The notes under the pieces: model-generated
Database searches by the model: none
Told to the model about the DNA's origin: nothing
What the model saw: the letters and a program-made list of their open reading frames with translations, nothing else
Shown: piece after piece, positions 8,526 through 10,652 of the stretch
Layout of the letters: every line of letters starts with the position of its first letter
Position numbering within the stretch: position 1 is the first letter of the stretch
From: a virus
Strand: one strand, 5' to 3'
Length of the DNA: 21,471 nt
UHGV virus genome: UHGV-0123286
Translations under genes and position numbers: made by a program

Positions 8526-8569
8526 TCCCGCATTTCGGCGGGAATGAGGACCATGACTGTTAAAGAGCG
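8526..8569 (-). promoter_or_regulatory. nutR: boxA CGCTCTTTAA (8569..8560) and boxB hairpin TCCCGC-CGAAAT-GCGGGA (8543..8526)
   Basis: boxA consensus directly after cro stop; boxB inverted repeat identical to the one at nutL. Confidence 0.65.
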
Positions 8570-8575
8570 GTGTTA

Positions 8576-8770
8576 CTATTTGTTTTTCTTGTTGCTTGGG
8601 AAAGGACGAACTTCCTCTCCAATCACACTGCCATCAGGCTTTACCGTAACCATGATGTTACGGCCTGCCAGAATGGCCTTGCTGATAGCGCACTGGATTA
8701 CACCAAAGTCACTGGCTGCTTTAGCCTGTCCATGGATTTTGGCGTAATCGGCAAGTGTCATTCGAATCAT
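8576..8770 (-). CDS. cro: Cro repressor (lambda-Cro fold, different specificity), 64 aa
   Basis: From [39 protein letters not shown]...PFPSNKK; similar to lambda Cro in length and C-terminus; GGAGAG RBS. Confidence 0.8.
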
Positions 8771-8799
8771 ATGCACTCTCCGTTATTAACCATGAACAA

Positions 8800-8869
8800 A
8801 GAATACTACAGGTATTCAAATCAATCAATACTCAGGGTATTTTTAGTTTAAGTACCTTAGCTATTAGAA
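8800..8869. promoter_or_regulatory. OR operator/promoter region: OR1 8803..8815, OR2 8828..8840, candidate OR3 8852..8864; pR (-10 8805..8800, -35 8828..8823); pRM (-10 TAGAAT 8864..8869)
   Basis: Two 13-bp palindromes ATACnnnnnGTAT 25 bp apart plus a weaker third; divergent promoter hexamers overlapping them; cI ATG 7 nt after the pRM -10 suggests a leaderless transcript. Confidence 0.55.
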
Positions 8870-8876
8870 TTAAGCT

Positions 8877-9593
8877 ATGGAAAATAAAAAATCACTGACG
8901 ACAGAACAGCTCGAAGACGCTAAGCGGCTTAAGGCTTTGTATGAGTCAAAAAAGAAAGAATTGGGAATAACCCAATACTCAATCGCTGATGAACTGGGTA
9001 TCACCCAAGGAGCGGTAGGGCATTATCTTAATGGCAGAAACGCGCTAAACGTTGAGGTTGCATCTGGTTTTGCACGATTGTTGCAAGTCTCAATTGCTGA
9101 TTTTAGCCAGTCAATTGCTGCCAAGGTTGCAGAACAGGCAGAAAGCCTTAAGAGCGATGCCAACGTAAGGTATGCAGGGGAATACAGAGCAGGAAAGAGG
9201 TATCCGGTGTTAAGCAGTATCCAGGCTGGCTCGTGGTGTGAAGCATGCGAACCATACACCATTAAAGACATAGATGTTTGGCTTGAGTCTGACGCGCATA
9301 TTCAAGGTAATGCGTTCTGGCTTAAAGTGGAAGGTGATTCAATGACGGCACCGGTTGGGTTAAGCATTCCAGAGGGAACATTCGTTCTTTTCGATACCGG
9401 AAGGGAGGCGATCAACGGCAGCTTGGTCATAGCAAAACTTTCTGACTCTAACGAAGCAACATTCAAGAAGCTGATAATCGACGGCGGAAATAAATACCTC
9501 AAGGGACTTAACCCTGCATGGCCTCTCGTGCCAATCAATGGAAACTGCAAGATTATAGGCGTTGCAATTGAGACAAAACTAAGGCTGGTTTGA
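8877..9593 (+). CDS. cI: CI repressor (HTH N-domain plus S24 LexA-like autocleavage domain), 238 aa
   Basis: Overall alignment to lambda CI ([17 protein letters not shown].., C-terminal FWLEVEGNSMTAP.., FKKLI motifs) with divergent recognition helix. Confidence 0.9.
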   Translation: MENKKSLTTEQLEDAKRLKALYESKKKELGITQYSIADELGITQGAVGHYLNGRNALNVEVASGFARLLQVSIADFSQSIAAKVAEQAESLKSDANVRYAGEYRAGKRYPVLSSIQAGSWCEACEPYTIKDIDVWLESDAHIQGNAFWLKVEGDSMTAPVGLSIPEGTFVLFDTGREAINGSLVIAKLSDSNEATFKKLIIDGGNKYLKGLNPAWPLVPINGNCKIIGVAIETKLRLV

Positions 9594-9610
9594 TCACGCA
9601 AGGGGCGCTT

Positions 9611-9979
9611 ATGGTTGGAACCGCTATAGCAAGCTTTTTTGGGATGTTGGCAATCTCGACAATTTACGGCTTAGCGCATGCTTTTATTGCGAAATCTCTA
9701 TCAGAAAAAATAAGCCAGGCTTGGGCGCATAGATTGGCTCGTTTCATGGTTCTAGTGATCATAGCAATACAAGGGATATCTGCATTTATCCTCTATGGAT
9801 CAAGCTTATACCTATTGTATCAAGGCGCGACATTTACGCCTTACACCAGTGATTACGGAACTCTATACGATGGTAGTGAAGACATCTCAATGGCTTGGAT
9901 CGTCTTTGGTTTATCTATGGCCGTGTCTGTTGTAGCAGACATCATTAAGGTAATTCTCGTCTTAACCTTCGCTGACTAA
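9611..9979 (+). CDS. Small integral membrane protein (3 predicted TM helices), 122 aa, immediately downstream of cI
   Basis: Three hydrophobic stretches (VGTAIASFFGMLAISTIYGLAHAFI; LARFMVLVIIAIQGISAFILYG; MAWIVFGLSMAVSVVADIIKVILVL); same strand as cI, 17 nt after its stop. Confidence 0.5.
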   Translation: MVGTAIASFFGMLAISTIYGLAHAFIAKSLSEKISQAWAHRLARFMVLVIIAIQGISAFILYGSSLYLLYQGATFTPYTSDYGTLYDGSEDISMAWIVFGLSMAVSVVADIIKVILVLTFAD

Positions 9980-10111
9980 CTCATAATCCCGGCAGCAATA
10001 GCTATCGGGATCCACTTCACATATCCCGCATAAAAAGCACTGAACAAGCAGACACCGAAAAAATAAATATCCTTTGTATTCATTTGCTTATCATTATTTC
10101 ACCAAAAATAA

Positions 10112-10152
10112 ATACCTTGGGTATTTACACAATAAAATACCTACAGTATTCT
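10112..10152 (+). promoter_or_regulatory. OL operators (10112..10124 ATACCTTGGGTAT; 10137..10149 ATACCTACAGTAT) with pL (-35 TTTACA 10124..10129, -10 TATTCT 10147..10152)
   Basis: Same 13-bp palindrome family and 25-bp spacing as OR; hexamers 17 bp apart, oriented toward N. Confidence 0.55.
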
Positions 10153-10198
10153 TTAGCCATCAGCAGGACGCTGGAAGCCAAACGGAACAGATTGGCAG

Positions 10199-10239
10199 GC
10201 TCTTTAACATTGATGGGATTGTCCCGCCGAAATGCGGGA
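10199..10239 (+). promoter_or_regulatory. nutL: boxA GCTCTTTAACA (10199..10209) and boxB hairpin TCCCGCCGAAATGCGGGA (10222..10239)
   Basis: boxA consensus followed 12 nt later by an inverted repeat identical to nutR boxB, between pL and N. Confidence 0.65.
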
Positions 10240-10346
10240 ACCAAAGAGTAGTTGGCTTTGGGGTGACGTGAAGTGCAGCTGCACGACGGCAACCGGAAGA
10301 TAAGCACCCGGCGCGTCACCGCCAAAGTCAATCATCGGAGGTCAAC

Positions 10347-10652
10347 ATGACAGTAGTCATTACATACCTGGCTGACGATAACGCCAGAAACCGCCGCAGA
10401 GCACGCAGACAGGCTCAACGTGAACAGGCAATGCAAGAGCAGCGACTGGCGCGAAAAATTGCGCTAAAGCTCTCTGGTTGCGTCAGAGCAGACAAAGCAG
10501 CATCACTCGGAAGCCTTCGCTGCAAGAAGGTAGAAGAAGTCGAGAGTAAACAGAATCGTATTTACTACCGCAAGCCACGCAGTGAAATGGGTGTGACTTG
10601 TGTTGGTCGCCAGAAAATGAAATTAGGCAGCAAACCACTGTATGAGGGGTGA
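10347..10652 (+). CDS. N: N antiterminator, 101 aa
   Basis: Arginine-rich motif NARNRRRARRQAQ near N-terminus; C-terminus RIYYRKPRSEMGVTCVGRQKMK resembles lambda N C-terminus; GGAGG RBS. Confidence 0.85.
   Translation: MTVVITYLADDNARNRRRARRQAQREQAMQEQRLARKIALKLSGCVRADKAASLGSLRCKKVEEVESKQNRIYYRKPRSEMGVTCVGRQKMKLGSKPLYEG

Follow-up and report, generated by a model that had tools for sequence, protein, structure and literature searches.

Organisation of the immunity region

The analysed stretch of DNA (hereafter the window) comprises 21,471 nucleotides of the virus genome UHGV-0123286 and carries, from cII to N, the genes cro and cI, a hydrophobic ORF similar to hkaS of phage HK620, predicted operators at OR and OL and two nut sites (Table 1). 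Judged by gene order and homology, the region is the lysis/lysogeny switch with the N antitermination module of a lambda-like prophage. The layout pL, OL, cI, OR, cro, nutR and cII is shared with phage lambda, whereas the lambda rexAB genes are replaced by the single small hkaS-like gene. Neither Pfam nor NCBIfam gave a match for this ORF, and HK620 hkaS is annotated as 'unknown' in its GenBank record. Hairpins resembling terminators are more frequent downstream of N than expected (6 versus 1.7); an Rfam scan of the whole window at gathering thresholds returned no match. Its counterpart is found in phage HK620 (GenBank AF335538 / NC_002730), which was sequenced and annotated in 2001 and shows the same gene order in its immunity region. 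This record annotates OR1-3, OL1-3, pR, pL, nutL, nutR and tR1, with the operator and nut entries being predictions ('putative').

Table 1. Features of the immunity and antitermination region, with positions in the window.
Feature	Position	Strand	Size or sequence	Remarks
cII	8189..8467	-	92 aa	Follows nutR/tR1 as first gene of the rightward operon; Pfam Phage_CII, 150 bits
nutR boxB	8526..8543	-	UCCCGC-CGAAAU-GCGGGA	Stem extends to 8 bp (AUUCCCGC/GCGGGAAU); 100% identical to annotated HK620 nutR
nutR boxA	8561..8569	-	CGCTCTTTA; RNA CGCUCUUUA(ACAG)	17 nt upstream of nutR boxB; within annotated HK620 nutR
cro	8576..8770	-	64 aa	ATG at 8770; GGAGAG 5 nt upstream
pR (putative)	8800..8828	-	-35 TTGATT (8823-8828), 17-nt spacer, -10 TATTCT (8800-8805)	Agrees with HK620 pR
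OR1 (predicted)	8801..8817		GAATACTACAGGTATTC	Exact core copy 8803-8815; identical to annotated HK620 OR1; kept in diverged relatives
OR2 (predicted)	8826..8842		CAATACTCAGGGTATTT	Exact core copy 8828-8840; 25 bp from OR1; kept in relatives
OR3 (predicted)	8850..8866		AAGTACCTTAGCTATTA	Weakest site; 24 bp from OR2; identical to annotated HK620 OR3
pRM -10 (putative, from sequence)	8865-8870		TAGAAT	Overlaps OR3; ends 6 nt before the cI ATG
cI	8877..9593	+	238 aa	Repressor; HTH domain and S24 autocleavage domain
hkaS-like hydrophobic ORF	9611..9979	+	122 aa	Position of lambda rexAB; co-oriented with cI; 96% to HK620 hkaS
OL3 (probable)	10065..10081		AAATATCCTTTGTATTC	One mismatch to core; 45 bp from OL2; position kept in relatives L149 and L150
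OL2 (predicted)	10110..10126		AAATACCTTGGGTATTT	Exact core copy 10112-10124; from palindrome count and HK620 identity
pL	10124..10152	+	TTTACA, 17-nt spacer, TATTCT	Promoter scan; agrees with HK620 annotation
OL1 (predicted)	10135..10151		AAATACCTACAGTATTC	Exact core copy 10137-10149; from palindrome count and HK620 identity
nutL boxA	10198..10206	+	GGCTCTTTA; RNA GGCUCUUUA(ACAU)	15 nt upstream of nutL boxB
nutL boxB	10222..10239	+	UCCCGC-CGAAAU-GCGGGA	Identical to HK620 nutL
N	10347..10652	+	101 aa	GGAGG ribosome binding site

CI, Cro and their predicted operators

CI aligns over its full length with the lambda repressor (PDB code 3bdn; E=3e-52; 44% identical) and matches the Pfam families HTH_3 (39 bits) and Peptidase_S24 (84.6 bits). 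The 3bdn alignment further shows that CI retains QAG, the site of Ala-Gly cleavage in lambda, together with GDSMTAP and FKKL, which hold the Ser/Lys dyad. Cro is related to lambda Cro (1cop/5cro; E=5e-19; 58.5% identical) and scores 91.4 bits against Pfam PF09048, for which the cut-off is 32.7. The recognition helices of both proteins differ from those of lambda, with QGAVGHYLNGRN instead of QSGVGALFNGIN in CI and QCAISKAI instead of QSAINKAI in Cro. An earlier sequence-only reading of this DNA, which had assigned CI and Cro to the lambda folds with divergent recognition regions, is borne out by these comparisons. For both folds, structures from lambda have been solved.

The exact palindrome ATACNNNNNGTAT occurs five times in the window versus 0.11 copies expected, and five or more copies were found in none of 100 shuffled sequences. 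Four of the copies, which the same reading had noted as a palindrome family with 25-bp spacing, lie in OR1/OR2 and OL2/OL1, each pair being separated by 25 bp from centre to centre. The fifth copy, at 9808-9820, is located inside the gene between cI and OL. It was considered as an auxiliary operator and rejected; since it is absent from L149, a relative with an 87%-identical CI, it probably occurs by chance.

The 17-bp predicted sites contain the operator core ATAC-N5-GTAT and show a tripartite layout of the lambda type, with three pseudo-symmetric sites at OR between the divergent cI and cro genes and three at OL, where the position of OL3 is uncertain; the sites overlap pR, pRM and pL. Relatives with CI proteins only 76-87% identical and an unchanged recognition helix have kept AATAC-N5-GTATT sites in place, while the surrounding intergenic DNA has otherwise diverged. 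The position of OR3 is likewise conserved in relatives. In the HK620 record, OL3 is assigned to a different sequence (TTATCATTATTTCATCA, corresponding to 10088-10104 of the window), and the sequence of our probable OL3 belongs to the annotated tIMM. As the GenBank site differs from the site conserved in relatives, the assignment of OL3 is ambiguous, and the comparative footprint suggests that OL3 is misplaced in the HK620 record.

The operators had been described as unlike those of lambda. This is correct for half-site positions 1, 3, 4 and 8 (AAATACCy in the window versus TATCACCG in lambda) but not for the general design, as both phages have 17-bp sites with a central base pair, a tripartite OR and OL and identical bases at positions 2, 5, 6 and 7 (A, A, C, C). 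The distance between O1 and O2 is 25 bp as compared to 24 bp in lambda, and that between OL2 and OL3 45 bp as compared to 20 bp. The half-site consensus is (A/G)AATACC, and the positions unlike lambda accompany the replacements S45G/G46A/A49H in CI and S28C/N31S in Cro. A published Cro 'evolutionary code' predicts half-site bases from the recognition residues of Cro (PMC6649833); the bases A2, A5 and C6 equal its prediction for Gln H1, Ala H3 and Lys H6.

Promoters and proposed regulatory circuit

A promoter scan with a threshold of 9/12 recovered pL alone, while pR and pRM fell below the threshold and were assigned by visual inspection with the help of the HK620 annotation. The assignment of pR is putative because its score of 8/12 is under this threshold. 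The -10 hexamer of pR overlaps OR1 and its -35 hexamer OR2; at the opposite end, the -10 hexamer of pL overlaps OL1. Given the short distance between the pRM -10 hexamer and the start codon, cI is probably translated from a leaderless mRNA like that of lambda. Lambda also shares the autocleavage motifs and probably the RNA polymerase-binding C-terminus of N.

Comparison established the identity to HK620, the protein homologies, where the sites lie and how far they are conserved, and the ARM-boxB association described below; the binding events and regulatory outcomes of the switch we infer from lambda as a model. CI dimers would bind the 17-bp operators and cooperatively fill O1 and O2 at both OR and OL. 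There they would occlude pR and pL, because the -10 hexamers of these promoters lie within OR1 and OL1, and CI bound to OR2 would activate pRM to give a probably leaderless transcript of cI and the hkaS-like gene. Cro would bind the same operators with a preference for OR3 and thereby shut off pRM. The prophage would be induced when RecA stimulates CI to cleave itself at the conserved Ala-Gly site. The transcripts from pL and pR would both carry boxA and the boxB hairpin, to which the N-terminal arginine-rich helix of N may bind. The phage-21-type body of N together with NusA, NusB, NusE and NusG on the near-consensus boxA would then modify RNA polymerase, which would read through tR1 and the terminators downstream of N.

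The nut sites and the N protein

The 18-nt boxB sequence TCCCGCCGAAATGCGGGA is present in exactly two copies in the window versus 0 expected, and both copies fold into a stem of 6-8 bp with a hexaloop. Each copy follows a boxA, so that the identical nutL and nutR hairpins near boxA reported from the sequence alone are fully reproduced. The pL leader (10152-10210) is 98% identical to that of phage 21.

Residues 1-31 of N carry an arginine-rich motif (ARM) of the HK620 type (NARNRRRARRQAQREQAM), and residues 32-101 form a phage-21 N body with 90% identity (61/68). The segment NARNRRRARRQ of the ARM aligns with AQTRRRERRA of lambda and AKSRYKARRA of phage 21. The last ~38 residues are probably homologous to the RNA polymerase-binding end of lambda N, with a phmmer match of residues 61-98 to lambda N (6gov_N; E=0.0019). 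What had been taken for a hybrid N with a lambda-like C-terminus thus retains its deviating ARM and its mosaic character, while the C-terminal part is more precisely described as a phage-21 N body. A PDB sequence search with N retrieved 6gov alone and none of the short N-peptide entries. The score against Pfam N_peptide was 18.4 bits, which is below the cut-off of 27.9 bits. In E. coli genome annotations, N proteins of this type are mostly labelled 'hypothetical protein'. Because such a very common N carries this label and falls below the Pfam cut-off, antitermination modules are under-called.

Association of ARM and boxB

Among 79 loci with the HK620-type ARM, 78 have a CGAAAU boxB upstream of N, the sole exception (L066) having no boxB within 3 kb. 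All 64 loci with a phage-21 ARM carry CUAAYC, and CGAAAU was found in none of them. Across these loci the suspected co-variation of ARM and boxB holds and corresponds to the classical lambdoid rule. The general ARM-boxB specificity rule is said to go back to Franklin (1985) and Lazinski (1989).

The boxB of phage 21 shares with that of the window the 6-bp stem and the 6-nt loop, in which position 1 is C and positions 3-4 are A-A. The loops CGAAAU and CUAACC (phage 21) are nevertheless identical at only 3/6 positions, the stem is UCCCGC instead of CUCAAC or UCACCU, and the ARM is only 23% identical (7/30) to that of phage 21 (GTAKSRYKARRAELIAERR). Membership in the phage-21 specificity class was rejected, as the window has neither the CUAACC hexaloop nor the phage-21 ARM. 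Because the boxB geometry is common to both, N and boxB of the window probably work like those of phage 21 while lying outside its specificity class. The immunity region is unrelated to that of phage 21, with Cro being 17% identical to phage-21 Cro. For phage 21, PDB entry 1NYB is the NMR complex, which reportedly originates from a study by Cilley and Williamson in 2003. The phage 21 hexaloop adopts a GNRA-like UAAC fold closed by C-C (PMC12550061). By analogy, C-U would close a genuine GAAA tetraloop in the loop of the window.

The relation to lambda and P22 is more distant. Lambda has a GAAAA/GAAGA pentaloop instead of a hexaloop, and at the position equivalent to W18 of lambda N the window N has no Trp. 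P22 N (gp24) and its boxB share the general form, i.e. an A-x-x-R-x-x-x-R-R ARM helix and a phage-specific boxB after boxA in both early operons, but there is no sequence relation beyond the ARM core. The boxB of P22 has a GACAA pentaloop (PMC12550061). In the comparison with other lambdoid phages that the sequence-only reading had suggested, the operators, the recognition helices of CI and Cro, boxB and ARM all differed from those of lambda, 434, 21 and P22.

It is a close call, tilting slightly towards the negative, whether the HK620-type ARM and its C-GAAA-U hexaloop boxB with a 6-bp stem constitute a fourth natural N-boxB specificity, orthogonal to those of lambda, P22 and phage 21, in which the UAAC 'GNRA mimic' is replaced by a genuine GNRA tetraloop closed by C-U. 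If so, the pair would stand structurally between the recognition modes of lambda and phage 21 and might provide an additional orthogonal RNA-tethering pair. The ARM-boxB and CI-operator pairs could be used as extra orthogonal parts or to test the Cro 'evolutionary code'.

An unlikely but still credible alternative is that the pair is not distinct and that N cross-reacts with phage-21 or lambda boxB, the differences being neutral drift in a tolerant interaction. Such tolerance would be consistent with the A-x-x-R-x-x-x-R-R core common to lambda, P22 and phage 21, with the phage-21 geometry of boxB and with the GAAA in its loop, which resembles lambda loops. It is difficult to reconcile with the perfect ARM-boxB association in 142 loci. 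Zero mixed combinations occur among these, despite free recombination of the N bodies and their DNA identity of ~93%. Moreover, nutL and nutR are kept identical, and the strongest divergence from phage 21 coincides exactly with boxB (39% identity) and with the codons of the ARM (46%), the flanking parts being 93-98% identical.

Mosaic structure of N and independence of the modules

From the leader with boxA to the end of N, identity to phage 21 drops from 98% to 39% in boxB, is 72% in the leader after boxB and 46% in the ARM codons, and returns to 93% in the rest of N, which makes N visibly mosaic. Compared with HK620 N, residues 1-64 are 97% identical (62/64); from about residue 65 the window N follows phage-21 N, while an H-19B-like tail forms the end of HK620 N. 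One and the same 31-residue ARM precedes C-terminal bodies of at least four kinds, which are unrelated or divergent, namely those of the phage-21 type, the H-19B/HK620 type (...YRKSKQLTAR), the mEpX2 type and a type with ...GKSIPAYYD. That the hybrid look of N reflects uneven divergence of one lineage rather than recombination between N genes is very improbable; the intermediate leader between boxB and the start of N would fit gradual change, but the abrupt steps in identity and the variety of bodies carrying one ARM argue for recombination.

We propose that the region combines two independent specificity modules. The first would consist of the recognition helices of CI and Cro with their operators, and the second of a ~230-bp cassette (boxB, leader and ARM codons) with the matching nutR, set in a phage-21-like pL leader and N gene. 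The matching nutR always accompanies the cassette at a distance of 1.1-2.9 kb. The swap of this boxB-leader-ARM cassette into a phage-21 N backbone is a clean natural case of specificity modules.

The opposite view, in which immunity and N/boxB specificity form one co-adapted unit and hence a new combined 'immunity/antitermination specificity', draws on loci with a 100%-identical CI: all had this boxB at both nut sites, and the HK620-type ARM was present wherever the simple ORF finder reached N. We regard this view as hardly tenable, because an HK620-type CI is encoded by only 32 of the 73 loci that have this boxB pair, the others having P22-C2-like repressors (32), a third type (5) or, in single loci, further types including lambda CI. 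Furthermore, L150, with a 78%-identical CI and the same recognition helix and operators, has a lambda-type ARM and boxB. The repressor variety among the 73 loci led us to reject a strict linkage of immunity and N/nut, and with at least six repressor types flanked by the same nutL/nutR/ARM set, the earlier suggestion that both define one specificity pair was not upheld.

Relation to HK620 and distribution

Coliphage HK620 is reportedly described in a publication by Clark et al. from 2001 (J Mol Biol 311:657). A search of the full-text literature, in which the HK620 paper was covered through its GenBank annotation, yielded no binding or experimental studies of the HK620-type CI-operator or ARM-boxB pair. 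The sites OR1-3, OL1-2, nutL and nutR of the window are 100% identical to features annotated in AF335538, where OR1, OR2, OR3, OL1 and OL2 occur as exact strings at the annotated coordinates. CI is identical to HK620 CI at 237/238 residues (99.6%) and Cro at 64/64. Judged by the identity of CI, Cro and operators, the phage has the HK620 immunity type and would fall into the same homoimmune group, with superinfection immunity between them being predicted. With high confidence, we interpret the region as a genetic switch of the lambda type with HK620 immunity, which is flanked on both sides by the N/nut elements for antitermination.

Palindromes and hairpins might in principle be accidental or represent generic elements like terminators, and the intragenic copy at 9808-9820 is a likely accidental case. 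For the sites as a whole, this reading is practically negligible and effectively refuted by palindrome and boxB counts far above those in shuffled sequences, by a canonical placement with respect to cI, cro, N and boxA, by conservation of the operators in diverged relatives and by boxB hairpins lacking a following T-run.

With this degree of identity, the immunity specificity cannot be called unstudied, as had been considered possible, and HK620 provides the match to a characterised phage that had been named beforehand as speaking against novelty; at the sequence level the region is already known, real but ordinary, and of little value as a discovery with its operators and nut sites in GenBank since 2001. 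The identity to HK620 is lower for hkaS (96%) and cII (only 90%). Outside the immunity region the window is mosaic in another way, its replication and nin genes resembling those of HK446, HK544 and HK97. The HK620-type region was also found in HK140, HK630, mEpX2, several Stx phages and at least 146 complete E. coli genomes, and the immunity type further in HF4s, HZ41 and vB_EcoP-611R6. Judged by these occurrences, it is very common and present in hundreds of E. coli prophages.

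The early regulatory region and its identity with coliphage HK620

A lambdoid early regulatory region, inverted in orientation relative to the usual lambda map, extends over positions 8189-10652 of the window. Megablast identified it as the immunity region of coliphage HK620 (98.5% identity across 94% of the query), whose GenBank record (AF335538, Clark et al. 2001) carries annotations for OR1-3, OL1-3, pR, pL, pRE, tR1, tIMM, nutL, nutR, cI, cro, cII and N. String matching revealed OR1, OR2, OR3, OL1, OL2, nutL and nutR as base-for-base identical to the features of this record, and 237 of 238 residues of CI and 64 of 64 of Cro are identical to HK620. 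The same region is present in HK140, HK630, mEpX2, HF4s, HZ41, vB_EcoP-611R6 and several Stx-converting phages, and a match covering at least 80% of it was found in 146 of 5426 complete E. coli genomes. The exact sequences of CI, Cro and N occur in at least 1000, at least 1000 and 23 public contigs, respectively. The region is not new as regards its sequence and annotation, and the suggestion of a sequence-only reading that it might define a novel, unstudied specificity falls with this match to a described phage. The searchable literature, to which Clark 2001, Cocozaki 2008 and Cilley 2003 do not belong, yielded no binding or structural study of the CI-operator or ARM-boxB pair of the window (ARM, arginine-rich motif of N).

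Features of the early regulatory region in window coordinates
Feature	Position	Strand
cII	8189-8467	-
nutR	boxA 8561-8569, boxB 8526-8543	-
cro	8576-8770	-
OR1	8801-8817	
OR2	8826-8842	
OR3	8850-8866	
cI	8877-9593	+
Small hydrophobic ORF (hkaS-like)	9611-9979	+
OL3	10065-10081 (probable)	
OL2	10110-10126	
OL1	10135-10151	
pL	10124-10152	
nutL	boxA 10198-10206, boxB 10222-10239	+
N	10347-10652	+

No single phage record spans more than 47% of the whole window (1-21471). Its left part (replication, nin and Q region) is most like HK446, HK544 and HK97, while the early-left part resembles Stx2c phages, HK97 and HK630. This limited coverage and the differing best relatives indicate that the prophage combines known modules into a new mosaic.

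Operators, promoters and repressors

The palindrome ATACNNNNNGTAT occurs in five exact copies in the 21.5-kb window, where 0.11 would be expected, a count not reached in any of 100 shuffles. Four of these copies form two O1/O2 pairs, each spaced 25 bp centre to centre, as expected from the palindromic operators previously noticed at OR and OL. OL3 joins the set when one mismatch is tolerated, and OR3 is a weaker copy. The consensus of the 12 half-sites is (A/G)AATACC(y), with positions 2-5 invariant in 11-12 of them. Support for the operator assignment independent of the HK620 annotation came from the related loci L149-L165, which encode CI proteins 76-87% identical to that of the window with the recognition helix (T/S)QGAVGHYLNGRN kept. 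Their cI-cro intergenic DNA is substantially diverged, yet AATAC-N5-GTATT sites are kept at the OR1 and OR2 positions, the right half of OR3 is conserved and OL has two or three sites.

The HK620 record assigns OL3 to TTATCATTATTTCATCA (window ~10088-10104), which shows poor likeness to the consensus. The better-matching site AAATATCCTTTGTATTC (10065-10081), located 45 bp from OL2, is labelled there as part of the terminator tIMM. Given the better fit of this site and its conserved position in L149 and L150, both diverged relatives, the HK620 record has probably mis-assigned OL3. Both pL (TTTACA-17-TATTCT) and the putative pR (TTGATT-17-TATTCT) have their -10 hexamer in the promoter-proximal half of O1. 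Upstream of cI, the end of a TAGAAT hexamer is 6 nt from the ATG, so that the pRM transcript would probably be leaderless as in lambda.

The alignment of CI with lambda repressor (3bdn; E=3e-52, 44% identity) is full-length, and CI comprises HTH_3 and Peptidase_S24 domains, with both the Ala-Gly site and Ser/Lys dyad kept. Cro belongs to the lambda Cro family (Pfam 91 bits; 58.5% identity to lambda Cro), and the lambda folds attributed earlier to both proteins were confirmed. The operators had also been described as unlike those of lambda; this applies to half-site positions 1, 3, 4 and 8, whereas the 17-bp odd-centred layout and A, A, C, C at positions 2, 5, 6 and 7 are shared. Compared to lambda, Cro carries the substitutions S28C and N31S and CI carries S45G, G46A, A49H, L50Y and F51L. 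These residues are presumably located where half-site positions 3-4 are read in the lambda complexes, and they provide a plausible basis of the changed operator specificity. The Cro recognition helix QCAISKAI retains Gln H1, Ala H3 and Lys H6, which pair with A2, A5 and C6 in the published Cro ‘evolutionary code’ (PMC6649833); the window operators carry exactly these bases.

The fifth exact ATAC-N5-GTAT palindrome, TTATACCTATTGTATCA at 9806-9822, maps inside the hkaS-like gene that separates cI from OL. All HK620-type loci (~98% identical) carry it, but L149, the relative with 87% identical CI, lacks it. The hkaS-like ORF itself encodes a hydrophobic protein of 122 aa at the position of lambda rexAB and is co-oriented with cI; hkaS is annotated as of unknown function in HK620, and Pfam and NCBIfam searches gave no match. 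The product is a candidate exclusion or membrane protein that would be expressed in the lysogen. The match splits at this ORF in some E. coli prophages, where a sieB gene is annotated.

Nut sites and N protein

The 18-nt boxB TCCCGCCGAAATGCGGGA occurs exactly twice in the window, once per strand. Each copy is located 15-17 nt downstream of a boxA of the form GCTCTTTAACA and folds into a 6-8 bp stem with the hexaloop CGAAAU, in agreement with the matched hairpins reported at nutL and nutR. The boxB of phage 21 has the same geometry of a 6-bp stem and a 6-nt loop but differs in the loop sequence, CUAACC. The hexaloop of phage 21 adopts a UAAC GNRA-like fold with a closing C-C pair in the complex of PDB 1NYB (PMC12550061); by analogy, the loop of the window boxB would form a genuine GAAA tetraloop closed by C-U. 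The two boxA elements, CGCUCUUUAACAG and GGCUCUUUAACAU (8198-8206, 8561-8573 and 10198-10210), are common to phage 21. They are closer to the rrn boxA consensus, UGCUCUUUAACAA, than lambda’s own CGCUCUUA, and may recruit NusB/NusE more strongly than in lambda.

N matched lambda N (6gov) at residues 73-109, the RNAP-binding end, with E=0.002, and an alignment of N proteins revealed it as a three-part mosaic. Residues 1-31, with the ARM NARNRRRARRQAQREQAM, are identical to N of HK620 and mEpX2, residues 32-64 are common to HK620 N and phage-21 N, and residues 65-101 are of the phage-21 kind, with a more distant resemblance to lambda; at this place N of HK620 and mEpX2 has an H-19B/P22-like tail. 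DNA identity to phage 21 along the pL transcript is 98% from the transcription start through boxA, 39% in the nutL boxB, 72% from boxB to the N start codon, 46% in the ARM codons and 93% in the rest of N. N is indeed a hybrid, but this profile and the alignment identify its supposed lambda-like C-terminus as the phage-21 N body. The difference from phage 21 is a ~230-bp cassette holding boxB and the ARM.

The N cluster has 1223 members, and E. coli genome annotations call them ‘hypothetical protein’ almost without exception. N scored 18.4 bits against Pfam N_peptide, below the cut-off of 27.9, and an NCBIfam search gave no match. In the window, 125 nt separate boxB from the N ATG; in many related contigs (L009, L023, L025 and others) the spacing is 160-580 nt. 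Among the insertions, some contain a small ORF (MLHMQQEDLCECITSK...) and others add residues to the N-terminus of N (MTGCGNAKTNNHRH...). The leader of N is a variable insertion site.

Pairing of ARM and boxB across immunity types

Among 80 viral contigs encoding the HK620-type ARM (residues 1-31), 79 include sequence upstream of N, and 78 of these have the exact CGAAAU boxB there; a second, inverted copy lies 1.1-2.9 kb further upstream in 73 contigs. In all 64 contigs where the phage-21 ARM sits on an N body that is very similar otherwise, boxB is of the CUAAYC type, and CGAAAU occurs in none. ARM-boxB pairing is therefore strict even though the flanks recombine freely. The predicted co-variation holds, and it represents the classical N/nut specificity rule rather than anything new. 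We consider it possible, with slightly more doubt than conviction, that the pair is, after lambda, P22 and phage 21, a fourth natural N-boxB specificity, orthogonal to these three and with a true GNRA variant of the hexaloop.

Identical nutR and nutL enclose HK620-type CI at 32 loci, a P22-C2-like repressor at 32, a third repressor type at 5 and further types in single cases including lambda CI itself. The nut/ARM set is not tied to HK620-type immunity, and the proposed pairing of immunity and antitermination specificities does not hold as a strict linkage. One contig, L076 (IMGVR_UViG_2563366960_000006), encodes a lambda-type CI flanked by HK620-type nutR/nutL boxB hairpins and followed by N with an HK620-type ARM; it is an imm-lambda hybrid of natural origin whose N/nut set is heterologous. 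All loci with 100% identical CI have the boxB of the window at both nut sites and the HK620-type ARM wherever a simple ORF finder reached N, with at least four different N C-terminal bodies attached to this ARM. L150, with 78% identical CI, carries the lambda ARM and lambda boxB.

Proposed regulation

A lambda-type switch combined with N antitermination is the best-supported reading and very probably correct. It is based on observed homology, site positions, conservation and association, while binding and regulation are modelled on lambda and phage 21. CI and Cro would compete at tripartite operators, induction would proceed via RecA-dependent CI cleavage, and Nus-dependent antitermination by N, nucleated on boxA and boxB RNA, would act on tR1 and on a run of terminator-like hairpins downstream of N. 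Six such hairpins were found compared to 1.7 expected in shuffles, and they are likely targets of N. Intrinsic-terminator-like hairpins on the N-transcribed strand (+) lie between small early-left ORFs at 10896-10927, 11304-11335, 11680-11709 and 12166-12191, the clearest being TTGCCCTCCAGTGTGAGGGCGA followed by TTTTTTT (11304-11332).
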